Source: Candidatus Hydrogenedentota bacterium
Lineage (GTDB): Bacteria; Hydrogenedentota; Hydrogenedentia; Hydrogenedentales; SLHB01
Assembly (NCBI GenBank): GCA_019695095.1
Contig: JAIBAQ010000008.1
Location: 9,748 to 73,747 of the forward strand
Length of the DNA stretch: 64,000 nucleotides
Direction of reading: 5' to 3'
The notes under the pieces are model-generated. The model did not search any database. It was not told the DNA's origin and was given only the letters and a program-made list of their open reading frames with translations. The position numbers and the translations under genes are program-made. Below, piece after piece: positions 32,093 to 52,910 of this stretch. Positions within the stretch are counted from its first letter, which is position 1. Each line of letters opens with the position of its first letter.

Positions 32093-33574
32093 ATGGGTAG
32101 GGGAACAAACGTGAGTGATTCAAGCTTTGCTACCGTGAGGTGCGCCGAGACCCAATGGCACGTCGAGGTGAAGCAGGCAAGGCGGGAAGGGGATCAGGCA
32201 TTGCCCACTGAGGAGAACGTTGGGATGGTAGGACCGGTTTCGGGGAACCCCTGGGAATTGGCCCAAGACCGGCTCCAAAAGATACTCGACGAGCACAGTT
32301 ACAAGAATTGGTTTTCTCAGACTCGTTTTCAATCCTATAACGACGGCAAGTTAATGATTGCCGTGCCCAGTCAGTTCTTCGCGGACTGGCTGCGCGATCA
32401 CTATTTAGATGCAGTCAGTGCATGTGTCGGCGCGGTTGCGCCTGACTTGCGCGAAGTGGCCTTTGTTCCAACCGGCGAAGGATTGCCTCCGATTGCCGTG
32501 GATGCGCCGGCGCCGCATCGCGCGCGGCCGGCAAAAGACGTTCAGAAAATCGAAGGATTCAATCCTCGTTACGTGTTCGAACGTTTCGTAGTTGGCAGCG
32601 GCAATCGCTTTGCTCACGCCGCGGCTCGCGCCGTGGCCGAGAATCCGGCACGTGCCTACAACCCGTTGTTCCTTTACGGGGGAACGGGGCTCGGCAAAAC
32701 GCACCTTATGCAGGCCATTGGCCAGGAAATTGTGCGCCGTAATCCGAGCGCAAATGTCGCATTCATTTCTTCGGAACACTTTACGAATCAGCTCATCGAG
32801 AGTATCGCAAAGAAGTCGACGATGCGGTTCCGCGCCAAGTACCGCAAGGTCGATGTCCTTCTGATTGACGATATTCACTTCATTTCCGGTAAGGAAGCTA
32901 CGCAGGAAGAGTTTTTCCATACGTTTAACGCGCTCTTCGACATGCACAAGCAGATTGTCATTTCGAGCGATCGGCAGCCGAAGGAAATCCCCGGGCTTGA
33001 AGAACGCCTCATCTCTCGTTTCGAGTGGGGTCTGGTTACCGATATTCAGCCGCCCGATCTCGAGACCCGCATCGCTATCTTGCAGAACAAAGCCGCGCAG
33101 GAGAGCATCGTTGCGCCGCCTGAAGTGCTCAAGTACATCGCCACCTACGTCACCACGAACATCCGTGAGTTGGAAGGGGCGCTAGTCACCGTGATGGCGT
33201 TTGCGTCGTTGACCGGGCAGAAGATTACGCTTGCTCTCGCGGAGGAAGTGTTGCGCGACCTGATCGGACGCAACAAGGTGAAGCCGATCACCATCGAGAC
33301 GGTTCAGCGCGTTGTCGCCGAGCACTTCGATGTCCGTATCAGCGATTTGCGCGGGCGCAGCCGCCAACGTCAGGTGGCCTATCCCAGGCAAGTGGCCATG
33401 TACCTGTGCAAAGACCTTATTCCGAGTCTCTCGCTCATGGAAGTAGGCGAGGCCTTCGGCGGCAAAGACCACACCACGGTCATCTACGCTTGCCAGAAAA
33501 TCAGTCAGGAGATTCGCGAATCTGCCGAAGTCAGCCAGCTTGTCGGGCAATTGGAGCGCAAGATCCGCGCCTAG
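32093..33574 (+). CDS. dnaA: Chromosomal replication initiator protein DnaA (likely true start near 32225, MVGPVSGNPWELAQ)
   Basis: Domain I motif NPWELAQDRLQKILDEHSYKNWF. AAA+ Walker A LFLYGGTGLGKTHL, Walker B VLLIDDIHF. Sensor and box VII. C-terminal DNA-binding domain VAMYLCKDLIPSLSLMEVGEAFGGKDHTTVIYACQKI. Confidence 0.9.
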   Translation: MGRGTNVSDSSFATVRCAETQWHVEVKQARREGDQALPTEENVGMVGPVSGNPWELAQDRLQKILDEHSYKNWFSQTRFQSYNDGKLMIAVPSQFFADWLRDHYLDAVSACVGAVAPDLREVAFVPTGEGLPPIAVDAPAPHRARPAKDVQKIEGFNPRYVFERFVVGSGNRFAHAAARAVAENPARAYNPLFLYGGTGLGKTHLMQAIGQEIVRRNPSANVAFISSEHFTNQLIESIAKKSTMRFRAKYRKVDVLLIDDIHFISGKEATQEEFFHTFNALFDMHKQIVISSDRQPKEIPGLEERLISRFEWGLVTDIQPPDLETRIAILQNKAAQESIVAPPEVLKYIATYVTTNIRELEGALVTVMAFASLTGQKITLALAEEVLRDLIGRNKVKPITIETVQRVVAEHFDVRISDLRGRSRQRQVAYPRQVAMYLCKDLIPSLSLMEVGEAFGGKDHTTVIYACQKISQEIRESAEVSQLVGQLERKIRA

Positions 33575-38692: not shown

Positions 38693-40552
38693 ATGACTCA
38701 AAAGAACTGGACTCATACCGACGTACGCCCGTTCCCCTCACACGCGGACAAACAGACCGCTAACCGGAGTTCCTGGCTGTCGCAGATCGAATGTTCCGCC
38801 GTTTCGATGGTTGACCTCCTGCGTCAACGGGCGCTAAGGCGTCCCGACAGAACCATCTATACCTTCTTGACAGACGGCGAAGAGATTGGTTCTTCCCTCA
38901 CGTATTCGCAATTGGATACGCAAGCGCGCGCCATCGCTGCGACGCTGCAGGAGTTCTGCAAACCTGGCGATCGCGCATTGCTCGTTTTCCCTCCCGGGCT
39001 TGAATATGTATCCGCATTTTTCGGCTGTTTGTATGCCGGTGTGTTGGCCGTACCCGTCTATCCGCCCGACCCTTCGCGCTTGAAGCGTACGTTGCCACGG
39101 TTCCGCGTCATCGTTGACGACGCACAGCCGTCCGTGGCCCTGACGTGCGCGGCCCTCCTGAACATGGAGCAGGCCCTGGCGCACGCGGACCCAAGTCTTT
39201 CTACACTCCGGTGGATTGCGAGCGACAAGGTGAATCCCAAGCTCGCGGAAGCGTGGGAAGACCCCACGATCATGCCGGACCACATCGCCTTTCTGCAGTA
39301 CACCTCCGGCTCCACGGCCAATCCCAAAGGCGTGATGGTCAGCAACGGAAATCTCCTCTTCAACTTGCACGACATGAGCCGGTATTTCGACGACACGGAA
39401 GAGAACTGCCTTGTAACGTGGCTGCCAACGTACCACGACATGGGCCTCATCCACAGTCTGCTGCATCCTTTATACAAAGACTATCCCTGCTACTCCATGT
39501 CTCCGATGGCGTTTCTGCAACGTCCTTACCGATGGTTGCGCGCTATTTCCAAGTTTCGGGCTACCACAAGTGTGGCTCCGAACTTCGCGTACGACCTGTG
39601 CGTGAGAAAAATTACCCCCGAACAGCGGGACGTGCTTGACCTGAGTAGCTGGCGTTCGGCCGGAAACGGAGCCGAACCGGTTCGCCCCGAAACGCTGGAA
39701 CGGTTCTACAACACCTTTAAGCAGTGCGGATTCCGGTGGCGTGCCATTACGCCCGGTTACGGTTTGGCGGAAGCGACGCTTGAGGTATCCCAGACCTCGC
39801 ACGAGGAAGGTCCGACGTTTCTGCCCATCAAATCGGATGAGCTGGAGCGGCACCGCGCCGTCGAGGCACAGAAGCCGGGGCCCGGTGTTCGCGTGCTGGT
39901 TAGTTGCGGGCGTCCTTCCAAGGATACACGGGTCATTATCGTCGATCCGGAATCGTGCCTTCAGTGTACCCCCGATACCGTCGGCGAGATTTGGGTAGCT
40001 GGCCCGACCGTCGCACAGGGGTATTGGCGTCGCGCGGAGGATACGCGGGAAACCTTCCAGGCTTGTCTAGCCGACTCCGGTGAAGGACCGTTCCTGCGGA
40101 CCGGCGACCTGGGCTTCATGAAAGACGGCTATCTTTTCGTTACGGGCCGCATTAAGGATATGATTATCATCGATGGGTTCAACCACTATCCCCAGGATAT
40201 TGAGCGGACCGTCGAACTCAGCCATTCGGCCGTGCGGCCGGGGTGTTGCGCCGCCTTTTCCATTGAGGAAGGCGGCCAGGAACGTCTCATCGTCGTCAGC
40301 GAAGTGGCTGAAACCGTCCAGCGCGACGTATCGGCTTCCGCGGACAGCGGCCAGACCCAGGGGATGGTGGAGCCGAAGGAAGTCATTACGGCGATTCGCC
40401 GGGCAGTTTCGGAGTGTCACGACCTCCGTGTGTTTAAAGTATGCCTGATCGAACCAAGAAGTATTCACAAGACAACCAGCGGGAAAATCCAGCGGCAAGC
40501 GTGCCGGTCGGCTTTTCTCGATGGGGTGCATCGGGTGGTAGCCTGCGAGTGA
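38693..40552 (+). CDS. Fatty acyl-AMP ligase (FAAL; FadD32/FAAL-type adenylation enzyme), the loading enzyme for the downstream PKS
   Basis: 619 aa. AMP-binding core TYTSGSTANPKGVMVSNGNL (A3), GYGLAEATL (A5), YRTGDLGF (A7). FAAL-style N-terminus and insertion. No CoA-ligase C-terminal extension recognised. Confidence 0.85.
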   Translation: MTQKNWTHTDVRPFPSHADKQTANRSSWLSQIECSAVSMVDLLRQRALRRPDRTIYTFLTDGEEIGSSLTYSQLDTQARAIAATLQEFCKPGDRALLVFPPGLEYVSAFFGCLYAGVLAVPVYPPDPSRLKRTLPRFRVIVDDAQPSVALTCAALLNMEQALAHADPSLSTLRWIASDKVNPKLAEAWEDPTIMPDHIAFLQYTSGSTANPKGVMVSNGNLLFNLHDMSRYFDDTEENCLVTWLPTYHDMGLIHSLLHPLYKDYPCYSMSPMAFLQRPYRWLRAISKFRATTSVAPNFAYDLCVRKITPEQRDVLDLSSWRSAGNGAEPVRPETLERFYNTFKQCGFRWRAITPGYGLAEATLEVSQTSHEEGPTFLPIKSDELERHRAVEAQKPGPGVRVLVSCGRPSKDTRVIIVDPESCLQCTPDTVGEIWVAGPTVAQGYWRRAEDTRETFQACLADSGEGPFLRTGDLGFMKDGYLFVTGRIKDMIIIDGFNHYPQDIERTVELSHSAVRPGCCAAFSIEEGGQERLIVVSEVAETVQRDVSASADSGQTQGMVEPKEVITAIRRAVSECHDLRVFKVCLIEPRSIHKTTSGKIQRQACRSAFLDGVHRVVACE

Positions 40553-40628
40553 GGCGGCGCGTGGGTGCGTCGCATGGCGCCATGACCCGCGTGCGCATGA
40601 TTAGCCTGTCTTCGCGCGTTTCCGCGCA

Positions 40629-43600
40629 TTGGTGGAGTTTATATTCATCGTGAAGACCAAAGAGGTCATTCAAGAATGGCTTGTGTCGCGTCTTGCCGAA
40701 GAACTCGGTATCGACAAATCGGCCATTGATCCACGTGAGTCATTTGACAGCCTGGGATTGTCCTCGCGCGACGCCGTGACCCTTTCCGGGGACCTTGAGG
40801 ATTGGCTCACCCATCGGCTATCGCCAACCATCCTATGGGAATACCCGACCATTGAGACCATGTCGCGTTACCTCGCCGAACTGGATGCGGGCGGAAACGG
40901 CAAGACGCAAACGTTTGAAAGCCCCGCCCCGGCGGAACCTCGTACGAAGTCATTGAACGAACCGATTGCCATAGTCGGCATCGGTTGCCGGTTCCCCGGC
41001 GCATCGGGTCCAGACGAATACTGGAAGCTCCTTTGCGACGAACGCGATGCCATTCGCGATGTGCCCGCAGACCGCTGGGACAACGACTCGTTGTATCATC
41101 CCGATCCTGCCACGCCCGGGAAGATGTACACGCGGCGGGGCGGATTTGTCGACGCCATCGATCAGTTCGATGCGTCATTCTTTGGCGTGTCGCCGCGAGA
41201 AGCTGCGCGCATGGATCCCCAGCAACGCCTGCTTATGGAGACGGCCTGGGAGGCCCTCGAACATGCGGGCATCGCGCCCGATTCGCTAGCGGGCTCAGCC
41301 ACGGGCGTTTTCGTCGGCATCAGTTCCAACGATTATTCGCAGCGTCAATTCAGCGACGTGGCCCACGTGGACGCGTATGCCGGTACCGGGAACGCGCACA
41401 GCCTCGCCCCAAATCGTATCTCCTATTTCCTGGACCTGCGCGGTCCAAGCTACGCGGTGGACACCGCATGCTCTTCTTCGCTTGTGGCCATCCACAACGC
41501 GGCAATCAGTCTGCGCCTTGGCGAATGCAACCTCGCCATCGCGGGGGGCGTCAACGCGCTGCTGTCGCCTGAAGTCAATATGGTCTTTTCCCATGCCCGC
41601 ATGATGTCGCCAGACGGCAAGTGCAAGACCTTCGATGCCTCCGCCGACGGCTACGTGCGCGGTGAAGGCTGCGGCGTCGTCATACTCAAGCGTCTCGCCG
41701 ATGCGCAAACCGATGGCGACACGGTCATCGCCGTAATTCGCGGTACCGCCGTGAATCACGATGGCCGCAGCAATGGCCTTACGGCGCCCAACGGCCTCGC
41801 TCAGCAGGCCGTGATTCGGCAAGCCTTGGCCAACGCAGGCATCGAACCGGGTCAAGTGGGATACGTTGAAGCCCACGGAACCGGCACCTCGCTCGGCGAT
41901 CCGATTGAGGTCGATGCGCTGAAGGCCGTCCTGCTCCCGGGCCGGGGCCGAGACCAGCGCTGCTTGCTTGGATCCGTGAAGACCAATATCGGACATTTGG
42001 AAGCGGCCGCCGGCGTGGCTGGTTTGATTAAGACGGCCCTTATTCTCAAGCACGGCATGATTCCGAGTCATTTGAACCTGAAGCAGGTCAATCCGCTTAT
42101 CAAACTCGACAACACTCCCATTGAAATCGTGACCTCGCCTCAGGTCTGGGCGCGCGGCAATGACCGGCGGTTTGCGGGCGTGAGTTCATTTGGTTTTGGC
42201 GGGGCCAATGCGCACGTCATACTTGAAGAGCCCCCGCAGCAATTCCCGGATTCGCGTGAGACCACCGAGTCTGGCCCGCGTCGCCGCGTGTTGGCGTTGT
42301 CTGCGCAAACCGATACGGCGCTGAAGGCCCTTGCGCAACGATACGCCGAATGTCTTAGCGAGAACCCGTCGTCCTCGGTCGCCGATGTGTGCGCGACGGC
42401 CAATTCGGGCCGCGCTAGCTTCGACCACCGTATCGCCGTAGTTGCCGATACGACGCACGAACTGTCCGATCGCCTCGCCGCGTATGCACAGAGCGGAAAG
42501 AGCACGGGAGTATTCATCGGAGAAACCAAGCGTTCTGAATCGCCGAAGATCGCCTTTTTGTTTACGGGGCAGGGCGCACAGTTTGCTGGCATGGGCCGCC
42601 AATTGTTCGAGCTAGAGCCTGTGTTTCGCGAGGCCCTGCTCGAGTGTGACGAGATTCTTCAGAAGTATTTGACGCGGCCCCTCTTGTCGGTCATGCATCC
42701 CAAGGAGGGCGAGTCCTCGCCTATCGACGAGACCGCGTTCACGCAGCCATCTCTCTTTGCGTTCGAATACGCGATGGCGAGATTGTGGATGTCGTGGGGA
42801 ATCGTCCCCGACTTTGTTCTGGGCCATAGCGTTGGCGAATACGTGGCGGCCTGCATTGCAGGCGCGATGAGCCTGCCCGACGGACTTCGCCTCATCGCCG
42901 AGCGCGCCCGTCTGATGCAAGCGCTGCCTGCTGGCGGGGCCATGGCTGCCGTCATGTCCGATCGCGACACCGTAGCCGCCGTTCTCGAACCCTACCGCGA
43001 TCGCGTGTCCATCGCCGCCGCAAACGGTCCCAAGAATACCGTCGTGTCCGGCGCGGGCGACAGTGTTGATGCCGTGCTCAAAGCGCTGGAAGAGAAAGGC
43101 ATCGCCAATCGAAAGCTCGTCGTGTCACACGCGTTTCACTCGCCGTTGATGGAGCCGATGCTCGACGAGTTTGAATCTACCGCCGCCCGGTTGCAGTTCG
43201 ACGTTCCGAAGATTCCTGTTATCTCTAACCTGACGGGTAAGCTCGTGGACTCGTCGTTCCGGTACGACGCCATGTATTGGCGCAATCATGTGCGACAGGC
43301 GGTGCAGTTTGCCGATGGCATGAACGCCCTCAACGATGCGGGCGTCCAGGTTCTGCTCGAAGTGGGACCGCAACCGGTTCTCATCGGCATGGGCAAGAAG
43401 TGTGTGTCGAACAACAGTCTTGTCTGGATATCGTCTCTGAAGAAGGGGCAGGAGGAATGGGCTTCTGTCATCGACGGCGTTGCTGAACTCTACGTCCGTG
43501 GCGCGCGCTTTGACTGGAAGCGCTTCTATGCGAGCGCGAATCCGAAGAGAGTGGCGTTGCCGACCTATCCCTTTGAGCGCAAGCGTCATTGGCTCGATGT

Positions 43601-46600
43601 TCCGCGCAAGCAGGTGTCCGCGGACACTACGGCTGCTCCCCAGCCAGACACAGCACCGGATACGCCGGTGGCGGACCTTCTTTACGAAATCCAATGGCGG
43701 CCAAAGTCCAACTTGGACAGAATGCCCATTCGACGTCCAATCGACTTTGTGCCCGAACCTCAGACTATCAAGCACGCCGTCGACACGCACGCGGCCCGTT
43801 TGGTCGAGGAGCATCAGTTAGCAACGATTGCGGGCGTAAACGATGCGCTTGAGTCCCTAAGTCTGTCTTATATCGTCGAGGCGCTCGGACAACTCGGTTG
43901 GAATCCCGGACCCGGCGAACGTTTCTCTGCGGCGAGTCTGTCCGCGAGCTTGGGTGTTGTTCCTCTCCACGCGCGCCTTTTCAAACGGCTCCTTGAGATC
44001 CTCGCCGAAGAAGGATTTCTGCGCGCCGATGGCGAAGACTTTGTTGTCGATAAACCCATCGCTGCGGCTCCTTCCACGCGGATTCATGCAGAAACGTTGC
44101 GTGCCTATTCCGTTTCGGAAACCGAACTGACGATGCTGGGCCGATGCGGGGCGAACCTCGCCAATGTATTGAAAGGCACGGCCGACCCGTTGCAGGTGCT
44201 TTTCCCAGGCGGTTCATTCGACGAGGCGGAACGCCTGTACGAGCAGTCTCCGTTCGCGCGCGTCTACAACTTGCTGGTCCAAGAGACGATTACCCGCGCG
44301 CTTGAGCGCTTGCCAAAGAACAAGGTTGTGCGTGTGCTTGAGATTGGCGCCGGTACCGGCGGAACCACTTCTTACGTGCTCCGCGCTTTACCAGACGCCA
44401 GCGAATATGTATTCACCGACATGTCGAGCATGTTCCTTGCGCGTGCTGAGAAAAAGTTCGCCTCGCACTCGTGCATGCGTTATGCGCTGCTCGATATCGA
44501 ATCCGACCCCGTGACCCAAGGTTTCTCTTCTCATCAGTTTGATGTCGTCGTGGCGGCCAATGTACTCCATGCCACCGCCGACTTGTCGCGTACGCTTGCG
44601 AACGCGCGAAAACTGCTCGCTCCCGGCGGCTTGATGATTCTGTTGGAAGGCACTTCGCCCATCCGTTGGCTCGATCTTACGTTTGGACTTACCGAAGGGT
44701 GGTGGAAGTTTACCGACACTACGCTGCGTCCAAACCATGCGCTGCTCCACCCGACCCGCTGGATGCAGGTCCTGCGCGCCCAAGGTTTTTCAGACGTTGT
44801 CGCTATGCCACCCGAAAATATCGCCGGCGTCGACATGACGAAGCAGACAGTCATCCTCGCGCGCGCATCGGCGGACACTTCGGAAAGCGAGTCAATGCCT
44901 GTTGTCTCGAAGTCTTCGGACTCGTGGATGATTCTCGCGAACGAGGTTGATGCGGCGAAATCGGCTTCCGATTGCATCCTCAATCGAGGCGGACAATGCG
45001 CTATTGTGCGAACTGGCGAGGCCTTCGCGCACAACGCGAATGAGTGGACCATTCGCGCGGACAACGCGTCAGACTACGAGCGGGTGATCCGAGAATGCGG
45101 TGAGGCACTAAAAAGGCCCATAGACCGAATACTATGTTTGCCTGCGTCGAGCGCCACCGATAATTCGGCACTTCATGCAATGCATGCCAGCCTTTCGGCG
45201 ACCTTGCTTGTGCAGTCCCTCGCCAACGTGCGTCCCCCCACGCCACCCCGTGTCTATTTCGCCACGCGAAATGCCCAGAGTGTTGCGGGTGAATCGACTG
45301 ACTTCGCGTCCGCATCCGTTTGGGGCATCGGCCGGAGTCTGGCCGCCGAACATCCTGAATTCTGGGGTGGACTGATTGACCTTGACGCCGGAGCGGCCGC
45401 GAGCGATCTAATTGACGCTGTGCTAAGCGCGGAAGGCGAAGATCAGATGGCACTGCGCGATGGCACGCGATTTGTCGCACGGCTTACGTCCTGCGCCAAC
45501 GCCACAAAGGCACCTTTGTCGCGCACGTTCGACGCAAACGCGGCGTACTTGGTGACGGGCGGCTTGGGCGGAATCGGCTTGCGTGTGGCCAAGTGGATGG
45601 CTGAACGCGGCGCGCACCACCTATTGCTTGTCAATCGTACGCCACTCCCTGCTCGCGATCTGTGGCCGCAACTGGAACCTGGTTCCGATGCGCGTGCGCG
45701 AGTGGACGCCATTCAATCGCTGGAGGCGCTCGGAGTAAAGGTATATACGCCGTCGTGCGACATCGGCGACCAACACGCGTTGGATGCGATGTTGCGTGCG
45801 TTCCGTGAAGAGTCCGGATTGACCATCAAAGGTGTTGTGCATGCAGCGGGCGTGCTGAAGAATCAAAGCTTCATAAACTCCGATAACGATACGTTACGCG
45901 CCGTCATGCGGCCAAAGGTAGATGGCACTCTTGCCTTGCACCGTGCGTTTGCTGACGCTTCGCTCGATTTCTTCGTTCTGTTTTCCTCCGGGACCTCCGT
46001 TTTCGGTTCTCCCGGTCAGAGCAACTACGCCGCGGCCAATGCATTCATGGATTCGCTGGCGCACGCGCGCCGCGCCGCCGGTCTGCCCGCCGTGAGCATC
46101 AATTGGGGGCCGTGGGCCGAAGTGGGCATGGTTGCGGATTTGGATGAACAGTCGCGCCAGAACATGCCCGGCGTAGAGTTCCTTCGACCGGAAGTGGGAG
46201 TGCGAGCATTCGAAGCGGCACTTTTACTTGATTCACCGCAAGTCACAGTGCTGCAAATCGACTGGTCTCGCTTCTTTCAGGCATTCGGCGGCGAATCGCC
46301 CAGTCCTCTCCTAGACACCTTCGCCAAGAGGGCCGCGCGCAAATCGCCTGCCGCCATGCCGCAGCTTTCTTCGTCTCAATCTGCAGGCTTGCTCGCCAAG
46401 CTGGCGAGCGCGTCCGCAAGCGAACGTCAATCGCAGCTTGAGTCGTATCTCAAGGAACATCTCGGGCGAATCCTGATGATTGACGCTGCTTCCATTCGCG
46501 AAGACGCGAACTTCATGGAACTGGGTCTCGATTCGCTCATGGCTATGGAATTGCTGAAGAGCATCGAGCGCGAGTTCCGTTTCCATATCTATCCGCGCGA

Positions 46601-48596
46601 GATCTTCGACCGGCCCAACGTGCGCGCGCTTGCCCAATATCTTGCGGGCGAAGTGGAGCGTGCGACCGGTCAAGTCAGGCCCGCCGCGGATGCCGCGTCA
46701 GACGCGCGCGAAGTGCAGAAGGCGCTTCAAGCCGGGTCCGGCTCGCTTAAAATCAAAGCGTCGGCAGTCGCTCCGTCGAAGAAGATCCCAGGCGCGGTGT
46801 TCCTGTTATCGACGCCCCGCGCCGGTTCGACGCTCCTACGCGTCATGCTTGCCGGACATCCCCAGTTGTTCTGTCCGCCTGAACTTCATCTTCTGCCTTT
46901 TGCATCGATGAAGGAACGCGCCGAAGCACTTGGTATGAGTTATCTCGACGAAGGCGTGCAGCGCGCGTTCATGGAATTGAAAGGTTTGGACGCTGATGCT
47001 GGTAAGCGTCTGATCGACGAAATGACGCAGCAGGACGTTCCGATTCAGGACGTGTACGCGCAGTTGCAGCAAGCCGCGAATGGCCGAATAATCGTCGACA
47101 AGTCTCCGTCGTATGCAGCGGATATCGAGACGCTTGAGCGCGGTGAGTTGTTGTTCGATGGGGCGAAATACGTCCATCTGGTGCGTCACCCCTACTCGAT
47201 GATCGAGTCGTACGTTCGCATCCGCCTCGACAAACTCATGGGTGCCGACAAACTAGATCCCATTGCCGTCGGCGAGCACGTGTGGGCCTTGAGCAATAGC
47301 AACGCGTTGCGATTCGGAAGACAAATCGATCCGAGCCGGTTCCACATCGTGCGCTACGAAGACCTGGTCTCGAATCCGGAAGCCGTGATGCGCCGCTTGC
47401 TCGAGTTTCTGGGACTTCCCTGGGACCCGAATGTCTTGAAGCCGTACGAAGGAAAGCGGATGACCGACGGCATCTACGCAGAATCTCGGCCGACCGGCGA
47501 TCCTCGTTTTCACTTGCACAAGAGCATTGAATCTGAGCTTGGCGAGGTGTGGCGCAAAATCGATCTGGGAAGGCCCCTCGGCGGATTCGTGCGGCGCATC
47601 GCGCCCGAATTCGACTATGAATTGCCGAACGAGAACATCAAGCCGAAGTCTCAACAGACTCCTTCGGATACGCTTGTGCCCATAAAGCCGGTCGGTTCAA
47701 AGCCACCGTTGTTCCTGATACATCCAGCGGGCGGACTCGTGTTTCCGTACTATGCTTTGATCCCGTACTTTGATGCGGATCAACCCTGTTACGGCATCCA
47801 GGATCCCGCGCTCGAAGCGGAGCACGTGGAGCAAGCCAAGACGGAGGACATGGCCGCGCGGTACGTGGAGATTATTCGCGGCATCGAACCGAAAGGTCCG
47901 TACTACCTTGCAGGCTGGTCCTTTGGCGGCACCCTCGCATTCGAGATCGCGCAGCAGTTCCTGCGCGCGGGCGACCAGGTCGCTATGCTATGTCTCATCG
48001 ATACGGAGATTCCGACATCGCGCGCATCGCGAAACAAGGGTCTGATGCACCGCCTGAAAATGCTGGGCACTCAGATTTACACCGTGGTTGTGGGTGCTCC
48101 GTTTACATTGCCCTATATTCGCGACGGCATCTATCTCGTCTTTGCGACGTTGCTTCGCCGAAAGAAGACTGGTGGACAGGAAGGCCCAAGCATCCGCGAA
48201 TACGCAAACTGGGCGTGGAACGACGCGTTGCGCCAATACTTCATCAGCCATTCGGAGATCGCGGGCGTGGTCGAAGCCAATTCCCGCCTCAATATGATTC
48301 GTTTGTCGATGACGCGTCGCGTGATGCAGTTGCTCAACATTCATATCCACGCGCGCGACAACTACAATGCGGGACCCTATCCCGGCGAAATCACGGTGCT
48401 GGTTGCCAAACAGCAGCCAAAGGTCCGCGAGATGTGGAACGATCCCACGCTCGGCTGGGAACGCATCGCACCCGGTCGAGTCAAAGCGGTCCCCGTCCCT
48501 GGGAATCACGTCGTGCTCTTGGCGAGACCGTACATCGACGATACAGCGGCGGCCATCAACCGGTGCCTCGACGAGGCGCAATCGAAACAGTTGTAG
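40629..48596 (+). CDS. Type I PKS, single module, domain order ACP-KS-AT-(MT-like)-KR-ACP-sulfotransferase-thioesterase: CurM/Ols-type terminal-olefin-forming synthase. Probable true start GTG at 40650.
   Basis: Seen directly:
- ACP1 DSLGLSS (Ser ~nt 40749)
- KS DTACSSSLVAIHNA with EAHGTGT and NIGHLE
- AT GQGAQFAGMG and GHSVGE (Ser ~nt 42828)
- Class I SAM-MT motif VLEIGAGTGG
- KR Rossmann YLVTGGLGGIG
- ACP2 LGLDSLMAMELL
- ST 5'-PSB-like LLSTPRAGSTLL plus sulfotransferase core
- TE PPLFLIHPAGG and GWSFGG. Confidence 0.9.
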   Translation: MVEFIFIVKTKEVIQEWLVSRLAEELGIDKSAIDPRESFDSLGLSSRDAVTLSGDLEDWLTHRLSPTILWEYPTIETMSRYLAELDAGGNGKTQTFESPAPAEPRTKSLNEPIAIVGIGCRFPGASGPDEYWKLLCDERDAIRDVPADRWDNDSLYHPDPATPGKMYTRRGGFVDAIDQFDASFFGVSPREAARMDPQQRLLMETAWEALEHAGIAPDSLAGSATGVFVGISSNDYSQRQFSDVAHVDAYAGTGNAHSLAPNRISYFLDLRGPSYAVDTACSSSLVAIHNAAISLRLGECNLAIAGGVNALLSPEVNMVFSHARMMSPDGKCKTFDASADGYVRGEGCGVVILKRLADAQTDGDTVIAVIRGTAVNHDGRSNGLTAPNGLAQQAVIRQALANAGIEPGQVGYVEAHGTGTSLGDPIEVDALKAVLLPGRGRDQRCLLGSVKTNIGHLEAAAGVAGLIKTALILKHGMIPSHLNLKQVNPLIKLDNTPIEIVTSPQVWARGNDRRFAGVSSFGFGGANAHVILEEPPQQFPDSRETTESGPRRRVLALSAQTDTALKALAQRYAECLSENPSSSVADVCATANSGRASFDHRIAVVADTTHELSDRLAAYAQSGKSTGVFIGETKRSESPKIAFLFTGQGAQFAGMGRQLFELEPVFREALLECDEILQKYLTRPLLSVMHPKEGESSPIDETAFTQPSLFAFEYAMARLWMSWGIVPDFVLGHSVGEYVAACIAGAMSLPDGLRLIAERARLMQALPAGGAMAAVMSDRDTVAAVLEPYRDRVSIAAANGPKNTVVSGAGDSVDAVLKALEEKGIANRKLVVSHAFHSPLMEPMLDEFESTAARLQFDVPKIPVISNLTGKLVDSSFRYDAMYWRNHVRQAVQFADGMNALNDAGVQVLLEVGPQPVLIGMGKKCVSNNSLVWISSLKKGQEEWASVIDGVAELYVRGARFDWKRFYASANPKRVALPTYPFERKRHWLDVPRKQVSADTTAAPQPDTAPDTPVADLLYEIQWRPKSNLDRMPIRRPIDFVPEPQTIKHAVDTHAARLVEEHQLATIAGVNDALESLSLSYIVEALGQLGWNPGPGERFSAASLSASLGVVPLHARLFKRLLEILAEEGFLRADGEDFVVDKPIAAAPSTRIHAETLRAYSVSETELTMLGRCGANLANVLKGTADPLQVLFPGGSFDEAERLYEQSPFARVYNLLVQETITRALERLPKNKVVRVLEIGAGTGGTTSYVLRALPDASEYVFTDMSSMFLARAEKKFASHSCMRYALLDIESDPVTQGFSSHQFDVVVAANVLHATADLSRTLANARKLLAPGGLMILLEGTSPIRWLDLTFGLTEGWWKFTDTTLRPNHALLHPTRWMQVLRAQGFSDVVAMPPENIAGVDMTKQTVILARASADTSESESMPVVSKSSDSWMILANEVDAAKSASDCILNRGGQCAIVRTGEAFAHNANEWTIRADNASDYERVIRECGEALKRPIDRILCLPASSATDNSALHAMHASLSATLLVQSLANVRPPTPPRVYFATRNAQSVAGESTDFASASVWGIGRSLAAEHPEFWGGLIDLDAGAAASDLIDAVLSAEGEDQMALRDGTRFVARLTSCANATKAPLSRTFDANAAYLVTGGLGGIGLRVAKWMAERGAHHLLLVNRTPLPARDLWPQLEPGSDARARVDAIQSLEALGVKVYTPSCDIGDQHALDAMLRAFREESGLTIKGVVHAAGVLKNQSFINSDNDTLRAVMRPKVDGTLALHRAFADASLDFFVLFSSGTSVFGSPGQSNYAAANAFMDSLAHARRAAGLPAVSINWGPWAEVGMVADLDEQSRQNMPGVEFLRPEVGVRAFEAALLLDSPQVTVLQIDWSRFFQAFGGESPSPLLDTFAKRAARKSPAAMPQLSSSQSAGLLAKLASASASERQSQLESYLKEHLGRILMIDAASIREDANFMELGLDSLMAMELLKSIEREFRFHIYPREIFDRPNVRALAQYLAGEVERATGQVRPAADAASDAREVQKALQAGSGSLKIKASAVAPSKKIPGAVFLLSTPRAGSTLLRVMLAGHPQLFCPPELHLLPFASMKERAEALGMSYLDEGVQRAFMELKGLDADAGKRLIDEMTQQDVPIQDVYAQLQQAANGRIIVDKSPSYAADIETLERGELLFDGAKYVHLVRHPYSMIESYVRIRLDKLMGADKLDPIAVGEHVWALSNSNALRFGRQIDPSRFHIVRYEDLVSNPEAVMRRLLEFLGLPWDPNVLKPYEGKRMTDGIYAESRPTGDPRFHLHKSIESELGEVWRKIDLGRPLGGFVRRIAPEFDYELPNENIKPKSQQTPSDTLVPIKPVGSKPPLFLIHPAGGLVFPYYALIPYFDADQPCYGIQDPALEAEHVEQAKTEDMAARYVEIIRGIEPKGPYYLAGWSFGGTLAFEIAQQFLRAGDQVAMLCLIDTEIPTSRASRNKGLMHRLKMLGTQIYTVVVGAPFTLPYIRDGIYLVFATLLRRKKTGGQEGPSIREYANWAWNDALRQYFISHSEIAGVVEANSRLNMIRLSMTRRVMQLLNIHIHARDNYNAGPYPGEITVLVAKQQPKVREMWNDPTLGWERIAPGRVKAVPVPGNHVVLLARPYIDDTAAAINRCLDEAQSKQL
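44271..44828 (+). other. Embedded SAM-dependent methyltransferase-like domain of the PKS (between AT and KR)
   Basis: Motif I VLEIGAGTGG. Post-I acidic residue (YVFTDMS). Motif II FDVVVAANVLHA. Motif III LLAPGGLMILLE. Confidence 0.6.
46776..47618 (+). other. Sulfotransferase (ST) domain of the PKS
   Basis: PAPS 5'-phosphosulfate-binding-loop-like TPRAGST. Sulfotransferase-family core resembling the CurM/Ols ST (RYEDLVSNPEAVMRRLLEFLGLPWD). Confidence 0.8.
47691..48548 (+). other. C-terminal thioesterase (TE) domain of the PKS
   Basis: alpha/beta-hydrolase nucleophile elbow GWSFGG. LFLIHPAGG start. Terminal position after ST, as in CurM/Ols. Confidence 0.8.
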
Positions 48597-48624
48597 GGCG
48601 AGACATCCGACGTCTCGCGCTATT

Positions 48625-49081
48625 GTCATTCTGAGTTCGCCTGCGGCGGACGAAGAATCTGGCTTAAGTCACATCTGTTTCCTCCAAATTCTTCGATTCA
48701 GTCCTTAGAAACACGGCAAGAAGAAGGCCGTATCCTTCAGGAGCGACGGACCCTGCGTGAACGGTAATTGGTGGAAGAGACAACAGCTAAGTGGGAATCC
48801 CGCACTCAGTATCGGGCAGGATGCCCAGTTCCATTTCTCCAACTACTCACGTGGTGCCTTCTCCGGAGTGCCATAGGCACGACAGACTCCAGCCTGGGGT
48901 GAGATTCGCGTCCCAAACGCGAATCGATACCCCAGGTTCCAGCCCACGCCCAACGTGAGCCCTGTAAGGGCGAAAGCAACTTAGTAGTCTGCTTCTTAGG
49001 GGTTCGCCTGAGGCGGACGTAAAACATGGCTTCAAGGACGTGTTTCTCTGCCACTTTCCCCGCTGTATCTAGAATGACAAA
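48625..49081. repeat. ~460-bp element bounded by 12-13 bp terminal inverted repeats (TTGTCATTCTGAG ... CTAGAATGACAA) with internal direct repeat GTTCGCCTG(C/A)GGCGGACG. MITE-like or structured RNA locus.
   Basis: Read directly. IR-L at 48625-48637, IR-R at 49069-49080. 17-18 nt direct repeat at 48642-48659 and 49002-49019. Internal hairpin GATTCGCGTCCCAAACGCGAATC. Confidence 0.45.
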
Positions 49082-49181
49082 AGACAATGTCCGCCTGGAC
49101 GAGCGGAAAGTTGACTATCGCGATACGCCTTAAGCGATACTTGGTCCGCAAGAGATATCTACTCGTACAAGGCGCATACCC

Positions 49182-49925
49182 ATGCACATAGACGACACTT
49201 GGCAACAGCCTCCCAACGAACTCACGCTTGTCGTTGGCGATGTTCACGTGTGGCGTGTGGTATTCGAACGCTTTACCGCCAGGCAGGACTCGTTTCTATC
49301 CGTCCTCAATGAAGACGAACGTGAGCGCGCGGATCGATTCCATTTCGAATCGGGACGCTCGCAGTACGTCGTTACGCGCGCGGCACTTCGCATGACGTTG
49401 TCGCGATACACCGGCATTGAAGCCCAATCGCTCGAATTCGAGTACAGCACCCACGGCAAACCCTCCTTGAAGGGCGATGGGCCGCCGCAATTCAATGTCG
49501 CGCACTCCGGTGGTTTGGCTCTAATTGCGGTTACAAAAGAAGGGCTGATTGGCGTCGATGTGGAAGCGCGCCGGCGCGACTTCGCCGGTCAGCGTATTGC
49601 GAATCGCTTCTTCTCCGCGCGCGAAGCGGGAGCGCTGCGCAATCTGCCCACTGACCAGCAGGAACAAGGTTTTTTGAACTGCTGGACGCGCAAGGAAGCC
49701 TACATCAAGGCGCGGGGAGAAGGACTATCCTGCCCGCTGGATTCGTTCGATGTAACGTTGGCGCCCGGCGAACCGGCTCGCTTGCTTAATGTCAAAGGCG
49801 ATCCCAACGAAGCGGCGAATTGGAATCTATGCGCTCTGCCAATGGACGACGGTATTGCGGCGGCTGTCGCCCTGCGAGGACCCCTGGAAAACGTGTGCTG
49901 TTGGGATTGGACCGACAGCACCTAG
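49182..49925 (+). CDS. 4'-phosphopantetheinyl transferase, Sfp type
   Basis: 247 aa. PPTase motifs FNVAHSGGLALIAV and WTRKEAYIKARGEGLS. Positioned to activate the two ACP domains of the adjacent PKS. Confidence 0.85.
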   Translation: MHIDDTWQQPPNELTLVVGDVHVWRVVFERFTARQDSFLSVLNEDERERADRFHFESGRSQYVVTRAALRMTLSRYTGIEAQSLEFEYSTHGKPSLKGDGPPQFNVAHSGGLALIAVTKEGLIGVDVEARRRDFAGQRIANRFFSAREAGALRNLPTDQQEQGFLNCWTRKEAYIKARGEGLSCPLDSFDVTLAPGEPARLLNVKGDPNEAANWNLCALPMDDGIAAAVALRGPLENVCCWDWTDST

Positions 49926-49934
49926 CTTCTATTT

Positions 49935-51701
49935 CTACTCGGGCTTCAGTCGTATGCTCTGAGCATTCATAACCGCATAGCTTGCCATTTTCTCTGGCTT
50001 GATGGTGATCGTATGCTTGCCTGCCGGGATGTCCGTCTTGCCCAATGCCACCGCTTTGTAATCCTTCCAGGTACCTGTTCCCGCGACGGAACCTTCGGCG
50101 ACTTGCTGGTCATCAAGCAGTATTGCGAACTGACTTCCGGCGGCGCTGTTCTCGCATGAGTAAGTGAGCTCGATTCCGAACGAACCGGCCTTCTCGATTT
50201 CAATCGTCCAATTCACGGTATCCGCGGGATTGGTCCAGAATCCGATGTCGTCCACCTTGTGTCCATCGGTCTGGTAGCGGGCCGTATCGCCATGAATAGT
50301 CGCATCAACTGCATGCAGCACGAACTCGCCGTTTGTCCCCGCAAGTATCGGCGACTCCACCACGGACGGCGTTCCTTCGATCTCCAGCGCCACTACCGAC
50401 GCGATCGCGTCGGGTGCCGCCGCTGGCACATGCACGGTAACGCGATCGTCTCCCTTCACGGTCTTGAGTGGCGCGTGTTCTGAGTCGGACAGCAGATCGG
50501 CCTTCTTCACCGCGTTCGTCAGCCCCGGCACAACAAGTTCCCCGCTGGACGGCCAATCGAACACGTGAAGATACAAAACGCCGGGCTTGCTTGTGCAACG
50601 GCCCCACGGCAATCGCCGGAACGGACTCGCGGTCGTGCCGTAGATGCTCTCGCCATTCACACGCATCCAATCCCCCATCGCCTTCAATCGCTCGACACTC
50701 GCCTCCGGAATCAGACCTTCCGCAGTCGGCCCCACATTCAACAGAAAGTTGCCGCCCTTGCTTACAATGTCGATCAACTTCCGGATCAGATCTTCCTTGG
50801 ACTTCCAATTCGCATCGCCGGACTTGTACCCCCACGTGTCGTTCATCGTCATGCAGACTTCCCAATCGCGATTGGGAATGCCCGTTGGCGGAATGTACTG
50901 CTCGGGCGTGTCGTAGTCCTGCGGAATCTGAATGCGGTTGTTGATGATGATATTGGGCTGTATGCCGCGAATCATGGAGACGACTTCGTTGGAACGCAAC
51001 TCATCCGGTTTGTGTTCCCAACCTCCGTCAAACCAAATGATGCCGATGGGTCCGTACTTGGTGAGCAGTTCTTTGAGTTGACCTTCCATATAGTCGATGT
51101 ACCGGTTCAGATCCGCCCCATCTTTCGGACGCGTATCCCACGGGCGTGGGCTTCCTTCCCCGCGCGGAAGATAATCGGGGTGATGCCAGTCGAGAATGGA
51201 GTGATACCAGCACATGGTCATGTCTTCGCGTCTCACCGCATCGGACAGCTCTTTCATGATGTCGCGCTTAAACGGCGTACTCATGACATCGTAGTCCGTG
51301 AGCGCGCTGTCGAATAGACAGAATCCGTCGTGGTGCTTGCTCGTGATGACGACATATTTCATCCCCGCATCTTTCGCCAGTTTTGCCCATTCGTCCGCGT
51401 TGAACTTAACGGGATTGAACTCGTGAATGAGCGGTTCGTAGTCGGCGACAGGGATCTTTCCGTTGAACATGATCCATTCACCCGCACTTTCCACGGGTTT
51501 GCCTTTCCAAACACCCGCCGGAACCGCGTAGAGTCCCCAATGGATGAACATGCCGAACTTGGCTTCGCGCCACCATGCCATGCGCGCGTCGCGTTGCTCT
51601 TTGGTTTCCTCCTGCGCGTGAGATGCGCCTGTGAGAATCATGGACGCGACGATTGCCAACGAGGCCAGACAGAACAGATCTCTCCGGATGCGATTCAACA
51701 T
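49935..51701 (-). CDS. Secreted alpha-L-fucosidase (GH29) with C-terminal carbohydrate-binding (F5/8 type C-like) domain
   Basis: Signal peptide. GH29 signature MAWWREAKFGMFIHWGLYAVPAG...VVITSKHHDGFCLFDS. C-terminal beta-sandwich. Confidence 0.85.
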   Translation of the reverse strand: MLNRIRRDLFCLASLAIVASMILTGASHAQEETKEQRDARMAWWREAKFGMFIHWGLYAVPAGVWKGKPVESAGEWIMFNGKIPVADYEPLIHEFNPVKFNADEWAKLAKDAGMKYVVITSKHHDGFCLFDSALTDYDVMSTPFKRDIMKELSDAVRREDMTMCWYHSILDWHHPDYLPRGEGSPRPWDTRPKDGADLNRYIDYMEGQLKELLTKYGPIGIIWFDGGWEHKPDELRSNEVVSMIRGIQPNIIINNRIQIPQDYDTPEQYIPPTGIPNRDWEVCMTMNDTWGYKSGDANWKSKEDLIRKLIDIVSKGGNFLLNVGPTAEGLIPEASVERLKAMGDWMRVNGESIYGTTASPFRRLPWGRCTSKPGVLYLHVFDWPSSGELVVPGLTNAVKKADLLSDSEHAPLKTVKGDDRVTVHVPAAAPDAIASVVALEIEGTPSVVESPILAGTNGEFVLHAVDATIHGDTARYQTDGHKVDDIGFWTNPADTVNWTIEIEKAGSFGIELTYSCENSAAGSQFAILLDDQQVAEGSVAGTGTWKDYKAVALGKTDIPAGKHTITIKPEKMASYAVMNAQSIRLKPE

Positions 51702-51736: not shown

Positions 51737-52141
51737 TCACGACCACGTTTGCCGCGTGGCCAACTCAATACTGTTACCGGCGGGGTCGCGGAAGTATATC
51801 GAGTGGCCACCGTTGGGCCAGTCGATTTCCGTTTCGATACGCACGCCCGCTTCACTCAGGCGCACCCGCCAAGATTCCAGCGCTTCCGGTTTCACTTCAA
51901 ACGCGGCATGCCCCGGCCCCGTCGCGCCATGCACCGGAAAGGGCGTCCCCTCCACGGATGTCGCTTCGGGATTGAACACAAGAAACATGCCTTTACCACA
52001 ACGGAAAAAGACGTGACGCCCTTCCATCTTCGCATAGACTTCAAGGCCAATCACGTCACAATAGAAATGCTCCGCCGCTTCCAGATCGGCAGCGTAGACG
52101 CACGTCTCAAGAATGCCTTCAAGTCGTGGCATTGCCATCAT
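51737..52141 (-). CDS. VOC family protein (glyoxalase/bleomycin resistance-like)
   Basis: 134 aa. GLEVYAKMEGRHVFFRCG...GHAAFEV...HSIYFRDPAGNSIEL. Start overlaps the stop of the upstream gene by 4 nt. Confidence 0.8.
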   Translation of the reverse strand: MMAMPRLEGILETCVYAADLEAAEHFYCDVIGLEVYAKMEGRHVFFRCGKGMFLVFNPEATSVEGTPFPVHGATGPGHAAFEVKPEALESWRVRLSEAGVRIETEIDWPNGGHSIYFRDPAGNSIELATRQTWS

Positions 52142-52863
52142 CCTGCGTTGAGGTCTTCTATGAACCTTGTCTCGGGGGTCAGCATGTCCGGCTTAACGTC
52201 CAGCTTCGTAGCGATCATGTAAATGAGCGTGGTCCAAATTTCCTGATCGTCTCTTTCCTGCACGGGGACGGCAAGTTCGCTTCGAGTGCTGTTGATGACT
52301 ACAGATCGGGTCGTTATGCAACTGGAAGGCACATAGCGCGCGAACGGAAGCGTGAGTTCATCAAGAATTAACAAAAACAACGGTGTGCAGAATGCGACAA
52401 TCAGGAGGCCTACGAATAGGCCGCCAACGAATTCGCAGAAAGAACCTGCCGTAGCGATTATAACAATGGCTATTGGCATAAGTGTCAGCGCAAAGACCAG
52501 AGTTAAACCAGCGTTCAGCCAGTCAATAAGGCGAGGCCGTGCCAACTGCGGCAGTCCGTGGCCGAGCGACATCTCTAGTTCTTTCCACGCCTTACGTCTT
52601 TTCCTTCGCGGAACCAGTGTCTCCAGTGGTGTGTCCAGCGAGATCTCGCGTGTACTCTTCCCCGAGATTTCGGCTAAGGCTGAGCGGGTTTTCAAGAATG
52701 AGGCAAGCCTGCGGCACTTGTGATAAGGACGAGTCGCAACCTGATCGCAGATCCACGCATACAGACTACCTACGGTCCGATAGTCGATAAACCCGTCGTT
52801 ATCCATCCGGACGTCGAACTCTTCTTCGACGGCCATGATGAGTTCCGTGAGCTCCAATCCCAT
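52138..52863 (-). CDS. Membrane protein whose N- and C-termini are ACP-like (apparently circularly permuted acyl-carrier-protein fold lacking the phosphopantetheine Ser)
   Basis: AAGGAG Shine-Dalgarno 9 nt upstream of the ATG. N-terminus GLELTELIMAVEEEFDVRMDNDGFIDY resembles ACP helix II-III. C-terminus IATKLDVKPDMLTPETRFIEDLNAG resembles ACP helix I up to the DSL position. Central ~60 aa form 2 hydrophobic TM helices. Confidence 0.55.
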   Translation of the reverse strand: MGLELTELIMAVEEEFDVRMDNDGFIDYRTVGSLYAWICDQVATRPYHKCRRLASFLKTRSALAEISGKSTREISLDTPLETLVPRRKRRKAWKELEMSLGHGLPQLARPRLIDWLNAGLTLVFALTLMPIAIVIIATAGSFCEFVGGLFVGLLIVAFCTPLFLLILDELTLPFARYVPSSCITTRSVVINSTRSELAVPVQERDDQEIWTTLIYMIATKLDVKPDMLTPETRFIEDLNAG

Positions 52864-52910
52864 AGGGAATGACTCCTTACCGGTTGGCGGGCAAGGACGG
52901 AGTCCCTACC

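Follow-up and report, generated by a model that had tools for sequence, protein, structure and literature searches.

Does a sulfotransferase (ST) directly before a terminal thioesterase (TE) mean alkene formation when the TE is not of the kind found in the curacin module CurM and the olefin synthase Ols? The question is raised by a Hydrogenedentota locus in the window analysed here (the whole stretch of 64,000 nucleotides). A preliminary description had read it as a cluster of a FAAL, a single-module PKS ending in ST-TE and a PPTase, with the TE as a release enzyme of the CurM/Ols type. The ORFs and Pfam domains were as described. Three ORFs lie on the plus strand, at 38693-40552 (619 aa), 40629-48596 (2655 aa from a TTG) and 49182-49925 (247 aa), and Pfam reproduced the order ACP-KS-AT-MT-KR-ACP-ST-TE in the large one (PP-binding, KS, AT, HTH_51 plus class I MT, KR, PP-binding, Sulfotransfer_3, Thioesterase PF00975). 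The difference that matters is the TE family, which the description had missed. The predicted features are as follows.

38693..40552, plus strand: stand-alone FAAL, the loading enzyme (Pfam AMP-binding and DIP2-like domains; PDB matches)
40629..48596, plus strand: single-module type I PKS, ACP-KS-AT-cMT-KR-ACP-ST-TE (Pfam and motifs)
40674..40877, plus strand: ACP1, carrier of the loading step that accepts the FAAL product, with Ser46 in LGLSS (two PP-binding stretches in Pfam; motif)
40959..42080, plus strand: ketosynthase (KS), C281, H416, H456 (PF00109 1e-104, PF02801 1e-44)
42555..43457, plus strand: acyltransferase (AT), malonyl-type (PF00698 2e-59, aa 643-943)
43734..44870, plus strand: PKS C-methyltransferase (C-MT; match to CurJ C-MT)
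45288..46121, plus strand: ketoreductase (KR), structural and catalytic subdomains (PF08659 1e-64, SpnB_Rossmann)
46446..46643, plus strand: ACP2, Ser1969 in LGLDSL (PF00550, aa 1940-2005)
46758..47657, plus strand: CurM/Ols-type PAPS-dependent sulfotransferase (matches to 4GBM and 4GOX)
47667..48596, plus strand: type I TE (PF00975, NRPS/PKS family) whose lid is long and helical
48597..49181, no strand: non-coding spacer of 585 nt between TE and PPTase
49182..49925, plus strand: Sfp-type 4'-phosphopantetheinyl transferase (ACPS, PF01648, 2e-17; AASDHPPT_N, PF22624, 1e-10)

The 2655-aa frame described earlier is present, but its true start is probably GTG 40650 and not TTG 40629, since the NCBI protein MBX7255252.1 (from a Candidatus Hydrogenedentes MAG, 100% identical over a 281-residue query at the ST-TE junction) has 2648 aa and a stop codon lies upstream of the matching position in the related locus L001. 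The spacer behind the TE contains a direct repeat of 57 nt in two copies (48635-48691 and 49002-49058); its equivalent in L001 and L002 measures only ~120-190 nt. As a candidate decayed second TE (the loci L028 and L004 carry tandem TEs) it was rejected, as no similarity was found. An Rfam scan of 36-52 kb gave ASpks as its sole match, with 31.7 bits where the gathering score is 52; this match lies inside the KS coding region and was dismissed as coding-sequence similarity. The GC content is 0.56-0.61 in the cluster and 0.54-0.57 in the flanks, so that calling the setting high-GC was an overstatement.

The first ORF is by its matches a FAAL, being nearest to structurally defined FAALs over its full length, insertion region included. 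The best PDB matches, 7R7E/F/G (1e-154), extend end to end (aa 38-616) with small gaps only through the insertion region. They are followed by LpFAAL 3KXW (1e-141) and FadD32 (1e-106), whereas acyl-CoA synthetases reach only ~1e-24; the Pfam match to AMP-binding has an E-value of 1e-66. The entry 7R7E derives from the PKS of Picosynechococcus PCC 7002, where it is the FAAL domain (PMC11837247). The FAAL does have its own ORF, but this is not the departure from Ols that it had been taken for, as two-ORF Ols systems with a separate FAAL are known from Moorea and Leptolyngbya PCC 6406 (PMC3903477).

A FAAL with a loading ACP, followed by a single KS-AT-KR-ACP module with a malonyl AT, corresponds to the layout of Ols. 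All catalytic motifs of the PKS are intact in an unbroken reading frame of 7.9 kb. The KS covers aa 111-484. The AT carries GHSVG (S734) and, at aa 834-837, the HAFH motif, which is malonyl-specific (PMC7327777). The KR (aa 1638-1831) shows TGGLGGIG and Y1800. Of the two DSL serines reported for the ACPs only that of ACP2 exists in this form, the serine of ACP1 being found in LGLSS; ACP1 is 90% identical to its counterpart in L001 and 64-67% to those in L003, L028 and L084. The two-lobed ACPS fold of the last ORF bears out the dedicated Sfp-type PPTase, which follows the TE in synteny in L001, L002, L003, L004 and L028.

The MT between AT and KR was also correctly placed. Its HTH_51 and class I MT domains (aa 1054-1352) match the CurJ C-MT 5THY at 3e-102 over 379 residues, and the gem-dimethylating DisA MT at only 7e-46. 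It has the SAM loop GAGTGG and keeps both residues of the catalytic dyad, H1314 (NVLHAT) and E1340 (LLEGT; LYEAT in CurJ); the role of such a His and acidic dyad has been described (PMC7327777). With SAM loop, catalytic His and acidic partner in place, the domain is, as judged from its residues, a CurJ-type PKS C-MT. As a novelty it does not hold, since metagenomic proteins (P0241) show MT-KR-ACP-ST-TE ending in a CurM-type TE. The same is true of the non-cyanobacterial setting, which is real but has a precedent in ST-TE outside cyanobacteria, for example in haliamide (PMC6274090).

The assignment of the ST to the CurM/Ols type stood. Over ~300 residues the domain (Sulfotransfer_3, aa 2057-2267, 3e-38) matches the CurM ST 4GBM with an E-value of 1e-99 and the Ols ST 4GOX with one of 4e-90; compared by eye over 300 residues, it and the CurM ST are ~60% identical. 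The motifs PRxGST, PPELH, VDKSP, RHPY and YEDLV are identical to those of both, and the PAPS loop (PRAGST), E2085 and H2087 (PPELH) and K2158 (VDKSP) align with the same residues in 4GBM and 4GOX. McCarthy et al. reportedly assigned catalytic roles to the Glu/His and Lys residues in 2012. With these elements the domain is, from its alignment, a true CurM/Ols-type ST. In a distance ranking the nearest STs were a mix, some located before CurM-type TEs and others before PF00975 TEs, which places this ST inside a clade whose sole characterised role is the installation of a leaving group.

The TE gave a different result. It matches only Thioesterase PF00975 in Pfam (aa 2360-2631, 3e-25), not PF12697 or PF00561 (Abhydrolase_6/_1), and shows the features of that family: an alpha/beta-hydrolase core with its nucleophile in GxSxG, an Asp that follows the next core strand and, towards the C terminus, a His. 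The triad is Ser-Asp-His (S2431 in GWSFGG, D2458, H2627). In structure the TEs of NocB, EntF and Pks13 come nearest to it; in sequence it is closest to the terminal TEs of C-A-PCP-TE synthetases found in the same phyla. Kinship with the CurM TE was sought in three ways, by sequence, fold and profile-profile comparison, and only a generic likeness of the nucleophile elbow was found. A sequence search with the TE left 3QIT (CurM TE) unmatched even at E<=10, while the control, Moorea protein P0018, matched it at 3e-88; 3QIT was also absent among the matches listed in a fold search, and hhalign against a CurM-type TE profile aligned 50 columns around the nucleophile only (83% probability). GWSFGG, which had been taken as a CurM/Ols sign, is present but is the signature of NRPS/PKS type I TEs; the elbow of CurM/Ols-type TEs reads GHSMG or GHSLG. 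The CurM-type motifs GHSxG, VRWRWD and GGHNL are absent from this TE.

The decarboxylating TE of CurM has a Ser-His-Glu triad and a lid arginine that binds the beta-sulfate; the triad of the Ols TE is also Ser-His-Glu. Among 31 PKS-linked, 39 NRPS-linked and 10 ST-less TEs, we found no group-specific conserved position that could serve as a sulfate-recognition signature, and no residue conserved solely in ST-linked TEs that could stand in for this arginine. The lid motifs PYxRDGxYL, EYxxWAWxD and RRV are common to ST-less NRPS TEs. In the AlphaFold model the core is good and the lid poor (mean pLDDT 70.7, lid 50-65), and the low lid values make the model unfit for active-site geometry. Judged by these comparisons, the TE is outside the CurM decarboxylating subfamily. 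A TE unrelated to that of CurM/Ols had been named beforehand as an outcome that would speak against the alkene reading, and this outcome is found in part, namely as unrelatedness at the family level.

Like Ols of Picosynechococcus sp. PCC 7002, the locus has FAAL loading, ACP, KS, malonyl AT, KR, ACP, ST and a terminal hydrolase, and the FAAL and ST of Ols are its best or near-best PDB matches. It differs in the C-MT, in the dedicated PPTase alongside, in the Hydrogenedentota host and in the TE, which in Ols is an alpha/beta hydrolase of the CurM type that has GHSxG at its elbow and also VRWRWD (motifs seen in relatives). CurM (KS-AT-KR-ACP-ST-TE) closes a long hybrid line as its final module, whereas a fatty-acid-primed single module is found here. 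Compared with the type I TEs of NocB, AB3403, EntF and Pks13, the TE is fused directly after an ST on a PKS. In sulfazecin biosynthesis (SulM/SulN) a carrier-bound intermediate is likewise sulfonated before release by a TE, but there the sulfonation occurs on nitrogen, in trans, and leads to a beta-lactam, whereas here an ST in cis would act on the beta-hydroxyl of a fatty acyl chain. The swf clusters of sponge symbionts were ruled out as relatives, since they contain a reductase-ST fusion rather than ST-TE.

Synteny of the FAAL-PKS-PPTase cassette extends to four further Hydrogenedentota loci (67-75% nucleotide identity); in this group the MT may be part of it or, as in the L003 type, missing. 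The cassette adjoins conserved housekeeping genes (e.g. YjeF_N, a HAD hydrolase), and no transporter or tailoring gene lies alongside, which fits a cell-retained lipid such as the cyanobacterial hydrocarbons. The ST-TE junction and the gene order recur in independent assemblies (L001, L002 (~75% nucleotide identity), L003, L004, L028 and P0001-P0005). Of the 148 best cluster representatives, 78 have an ST with a PF00975-type TE directly behind it, which makes at least 78 clusters at 50% identity; this pair also terminates many NRPS lines, and fused ST-C-A-TE and ST-C-TE architectures recur among database representatives. In the searchable literature we found no characterised example of an ST-PF00975 TE fusion on a PKS, and the fusion is apparently a widespread but uncharacterised off-loading didomain.

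We tentatively propose, at somewhat less than even confidence, that the locus encodes an Ols-like, vertically inherited lipid pathway of Hydrogenedentota ending in a 2-alkene. As read from the sequence, the FAAL would adenylate a long-chain fatty acid and load it onto ACP1, and the KS would extend the chain with malonate supplied by the HAFH-type AT. The CurJ-like C-MT would then methylate C2 of the beta-ketoacyl-ACP, the KR reduce C3 and the ST sulfonate the 3-OH with PAPS, both ACPs being primed by the co-encoded PPTase. The chain would be freed by the terminal PF00975 TE, presumably recruited from the NRPS-type family, and decarboxylative loss of the sulfate would yield an internal 2-alkene of n+2 carbons (2-octadecene from palmitate); the MT-less relatives would make a 1-alkene, like Ols. 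Because the TE is unrelated at the family level to the CurM/Ols TE, we infer the alkene rather than read it from the genes.

Several points argue for the alkene. The domain order and catalytic residues are intact, and every part except the TE is nearest to its Ols or curacin counterpart (FAAL, ST, MT). With the ST directly before the terminal hydrolase, the sulfate comes to stand in the beta position relative to the carboxylate that is released, as the CurM/Ols reaction needs (PMC11730487, PMC6274090). Against it speaks the TE, which lies outside the decarboxylating subfamily and shows no conserved residue specific to ST-linked TEs that could take the part of the sulfate-binding arginine. In NRPS lines ending in ST and a PF00975 TE, alkene formation would make little sense. 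Secondary alkyl sulfates are also stable, so that a generic hydrolysis need not be followed by spontaneous fragmentation.

The main competing reading, which we hold to be less likely than the alkene, is that the sulfate is kept. The TE would then simply hydrolyse the thioester to a 3-sulfooxy-2-methyl long-chain fatty acid (C19H38O7S from a C16 starter, [M-H]- ~393.23), which would act in the cell envelope as an anionic sulfolipid or surfactant. The TE comes from a family of hydrolysing or cyclising NRPS-type enzymes and has no detectable ST-specific adaptation. In the Hydrogenedentes locus L084, a C-A-PCP-TE module comes after an orthologous FAAL-PKS-ACP-ST (identity 71% for the KS, 54% for the ST) and would take over the sulfated chain. 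As this would make an amide, decarboxylation is impossible there, so that the sulfate would be kept or otherwise used in close relatives; the recurrent ST-C-A-TE and ST-C-TE fusions point the same way. However, every characterised ACP-ST-TE terminus yields an alkene (PMC11730487, PMC6274090), and the ST is inseparable from leaving-group STs in the distance ranking. No exporter adjoins the cluster, although an anionic surfactant might need one. To our knowledge, 3-O-sulfated fatty acids have not been reported as bacterial lipids.

It seems improbable that the sulfate is a surrogate for a dehydratase, lost by alpha,beta-elimination on the thioester or acyl-TE before release as a 2-methyl-2-alkenoic acid or a Pks13-like transfer to an acceptor other than water. 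The module lacks a DH, the chemistry of a beta-sulfate beside an acidic alpha-H lends itself to E1cB elimination, and the acyl-transferring TE of Pks13 is among the closest structures. However, a DH domain is what would normally do this, and at lower cost, the conserved cassette contains no acceptor-making genes, and in the CurM work sulfated acyl-ACPs were reportedly stable enough to be observed. That the cluster is an inactive relic or, coming from a metagenome-assembled genome, a chimera with an unreal ST-TE junction is effectively refuted by the recurrence of junction and gene order in independent assemblies, with the single unbroken frame, its complete catalytic residues and the 78 of 148 representatives with this ST-TE order also standing against it.

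The pairing of an ST with a PF00975 TE may, although we would not yet call it probable, be a sulfate-dependent off-loading didomain in its own right, the second after the CurM/Ols ST-TE, assembled independently of it and used across PKS, FAAL-only and NRPS lines. Hydrogenedentota would then make an alkene without a CurM-type TE, or new conserved 3-O-sulfated 2-methyl-branched lipids, and relatives bearing NRPS modules would make sulfated lipoamino acids. A sizeable uncharacterised group, the at least 78 clusters with an ST fused directly to a PF00975 TE, is flagged in this way.

The sulfonation-decarboxylation route to alkenes is attractive for hydrocarbon bioproduction but has so far been tied to one specialised TE subfamily. 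An Ols-like line with a natural NRPS-type replacement of its TE offers a ready test of the need for the specialised enzyme. If alkenes are formed, the engineering rules would relax and the C-MT would open a way to internal, methyl-derived 2-alkenes; otherwise, the locus is a pointer to a family of sulfated lipids not recognised so far. We know of no cultured representative of Hydrogenedentota, and either outcome would provide a candidate conserved lipid trait for this group.

All three ORFs of the preliminary description could be recovered at the same positions, and the Pfam domains agree with its assignment of an Sfp-type PPTase:

38693-40552, plus strand: FAAL; AMP-binding enzyme with DIP2-like C-terminal domain
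40629 or 40650-48596, plus strand: PKS; PP-binding, KS, AT, HTH_51 with class I methyltransferase (MT), KR, PP-binding, Sulfotransfer_3 (ST), Thioesterase (TE), in this order
49182-49925, plus strand: PPTase; ACPS and AASDHPPT_N

The true start of the PKS is probably GTG 40650, because the corresponding database entry, MBX7255252.1 on a 76-kb contig of a Candidatus Hydrogenedentes MAG (100% identical across the junction stretch used as query below), has 2648 aa and because in the related locus L001 the equivalent position is closely preceded by a stop codon. All catalytic signatures had been claimed to be legible, and motifs for every PKS domain were indeed located in the translation:

KS: C281, H416, H456
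AT: GHSVG; HAFH, indicating malonyl
MT: GAGTGG, H1314, E1340
KR: TGGLGGIG, Y1800
ACPs: S46 (in LGLSS), S1969
ST: PRAGST, PPELH, VDKSP
TE: S2431, D2458, H2627

Both ACP serines are thus present, but S46 does not sit in the DSL context ascribed to it. The setting, described as high-GC, has a moderate GC content of 0.56-0.61.

The best solved relatives of the FAAL are 7R7E/F/G (1e-154), listed in PMC11837247 as FAAL domain structures of the PKS from Picosynechococcus PCC 7002, which is Ols. The ST matches those of CurM (4GBM, 1e-99) and Ols (4GOX, 4e-90) over its full length, and their PAPS loop, PPELH and VDKSP are identical in the window ST. The MT matches the CurJ C-MT (5THY, 3e-102) with His and Glu retained and scores far lower against the gem-dimethylating DisA MT; together with the malonyl-type AT, this leads us to predict one SAM-derived alpha-methyl group.

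The terminus had been assigned to the CurM/Ols type. This holds for the ST, but the TE belongs to a different family, PF00975, a deviation that was overlooked although it sets the locus apart. Nearly all ST homologues in a search of 5.8 billion proteins are followed by Abhydrolase_6/_1, the CurM type, unlike in the window. The best PDB matches of the window TE are the TEs of NocB, NRPS4, AB3403, EntF, Pks13 and FAS, while the CurM TE (3QIT) gave no match in this search even at E<=10; 3QIT is in the searched library, since a Moorea ACP-ST-TE used as control matched it at 3e-88. Profile-profile comparison with eight CurM-type TEs aligned just 50 columns, at the nucleophile elbow, and instead of their GHSxG, VRWRWD and GGHNL the window TE has GWSFGG and PGNH. 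An unrelated, canonical macrolactonising TE had been named as speaking against the original reading, and the window TE thus bears out this objection in part.

Outside ST contexts, the nearest relatives of the window TE are found at the end of C-A-PCP-TE synthetases in Hydrogenedentota, Anaerolineae and Ktedonobacteria; they share its long lid and lid motifs. A comparison of ST-TEs linked to PKSs (31) or to NRPSs (39) with 10 ST-less TEs revealed no position conserved solely in the ST-linked TEs. The sequences thus provide no evidence of an adaptation to sulfate binding comparable to the lid arginine of the CurM TE, which reportedly has this role (Gehret et al. 2011).

A query spanning the ST/TE junction, run against 1.84 billion cluster representatives, gave 305 matches at E<=1e-30. 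In 78 of the best 148 representatives, a PF00975-type TE comes directly after the ST; the contexts are KS-AT-KR-ACP-ST-TE (about 15, some Pfam-confirmed), the short protein P0124 and numerous NRPS lines ending in A-PCP-ST-TE. The closest neighbours of the window ST in a distance ranking are a mix, some with CurM-type and some with PF00975 TEs; the TE partner has thus been exchanged inside a single ST clade. The metagenomic protein P0124 (1422 aa) is a minimal FAAL-ACP-ST-TE without KS, AT and KR, with a junction 52% identical to that of the window; it would act directly on the loaded fatty acid, presumably 3-hydroxylated. At L083:11-12125 (Pyrinomonadaceae MAG, DASVQM010000062.1), an A-PCP-ST-TE (PF00975) NRPS terminus has as neighbours an ABC exporter, SbnA/SbnB-like PALP and OCD genes for a diaminopropionate route, MbtH, a type II TE and a fused ATP-sulfurylase/APS-kinase. 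This set recalls sulfazecin-type monobactam logic but differs in having the sulfotransferase in cis. Our literature search found no paper describing the ST-PF00975 TE didomain or the Hydrogenedentota cluster.

Three other departures from Ols had been proposed. The FAAL is indeed a separate ORF, but this is known already from the Ols of Moorea and Leptolyngbya PCC 6406 (PMC3903477). The host is non-cyanobacterial, but haliamide provides a precedent for ST-TE beyond cyanobacteria (PMC6274090). The MT does lie between AT and KR, but a cyanobacterium-like metagenomic protein (P0241) has a C-MT before KR-ACP-ST-TE, with a CurM-type TE, and an acidobacterial protein (P0090) contains MT-KR-ACP-ST. 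The feature that distinguishes this locus is the TE family.

Relatives were sought with one genome per species. Two Hydrogenedentales MAGs (L001, L002) share the cassette, with about 75% nucleotide identity overall and 83-85% identity of the TE protein, as do two more distant Hydrogenedentota loci (L003, L028; KS 75%, ST 56-57%, TE 39-42%), which lack the MT. The MT-less relatives L028 (7436-9285) and L004 (819-2642) have a tandem TE pair, ST-TE-TE-PPTase, with nucleophile and His motifs kept in both PF00975 copies; ST-TE-TE recurs in the database protein P0122. The housekeeping flanks are syntenic (YjeF_N upstream, HAD hydrolase and phosphoribosyltransferase downstream), and together with the shared cassette they show that the cluster belongs to the chromosome and has been passed down vertically in this lineage, rather than being an island. 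About 5 kb upstream lies dnaA (32093-33574), followed by two DUF4139 genes, so the window may be close to the chromosomal origin; the GC-skew profile is not decisive. A pyruvate dehydrogenase operon is located farther on.

The TE-PPTase spacer (48597-49181) measures 585 nt, versus about 120-190 nt for its counterparts in L001 and L002, and carries two 57-nt direct repeats (48635-48691 and 49002-49058; 70% identical, 367 nt apart); a search for an ORF, Rfam family or TE remnant accounting for it found none. A window-specific insertion (52130-52908), not present in L002, L003 and L028, contains an ORF (52138-52863, minus strand) for a protein of 241 aa that has hydrophobic segments. The N-terminus of this protein matches the second half of PP-binding (profile positions 32-67), and its C-terminus by eye resembles the first half, ending right before the serine position. 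An Rfam ASpks (mycobacterial antisense sRNA) match at 41907-41981, minus strand (31.7 bits, below the gathering score of 52), lies within the KS coding region and probably reflects conserved KS coding sequence. Three further genes fit the use of a sulfated fucose-containing polysaccharide:

38-1504: arylsulfotransferase-like gene
49935-51701: alpha-L-fucosidase with CBM35, immediately 3' of the PPTase here and in L002, not so in L003 and L028
57825-59186: sulfatase

As product, we tentatively favor a 2-alkene, at slightly less than an even chance. Everything through the ST is Ols-like, the sulfate would be placed beta to the carboxylate released on hydrolysis, characterised ACP-ST-TE termini give an alkene in every case (PMC11730487, PMC6274090), and exporter and tailoring genes are absent from the conserved cassette. 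Against this stand the different TE family with no adaptation detected in its sequence, the recurrence of fused ST-C-A-TE and ST-C-TE forms among the junction representatives, and an ortholog that feeds an NRPS module. The latter, L084:3640-15639 (Hydrogenedentes MAG GCA_016215105.1, JACRLJ010000101.1), encodes orthologs of the FAAL and of ACP-KS-AT-KR, with ACP-ST on a protein of its own (identity to the window: FAAL 56%, KS 71%, ST 54%), followed by a TubC_N-C-A-PCP-TE NRPS protein. In this arrangement the sulfated chain has to be joined to an amino acid, so that decarboxylative release is ruled out in L084; the predicted product is an N-(3-sulfooxyacyl) amino acid or derivative, not an alkene. 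For the window, the same points leave room for release of a 3-sulfooxy-2-methyl fatty acid, which we consider unlikely although a serious competitor of the alkene. Formation of an enoic acid by elimination, or transfer of the acyl chain, appears improbable.

The observation behind the preliminary description is thus confirmed, and its interpretation is supported in part. The locus, from an uncultured phylum, is an Ols-like line that has a C-MT and a non-orthologous TE, and it is one member of an ST-TE class that is sizeable but uncharacterised. Nature has here set up a clean experiment to test whether a CurM-type TE is needed for decarboxylative alkene formation; alternatively, it may uncover sulfated lipids.
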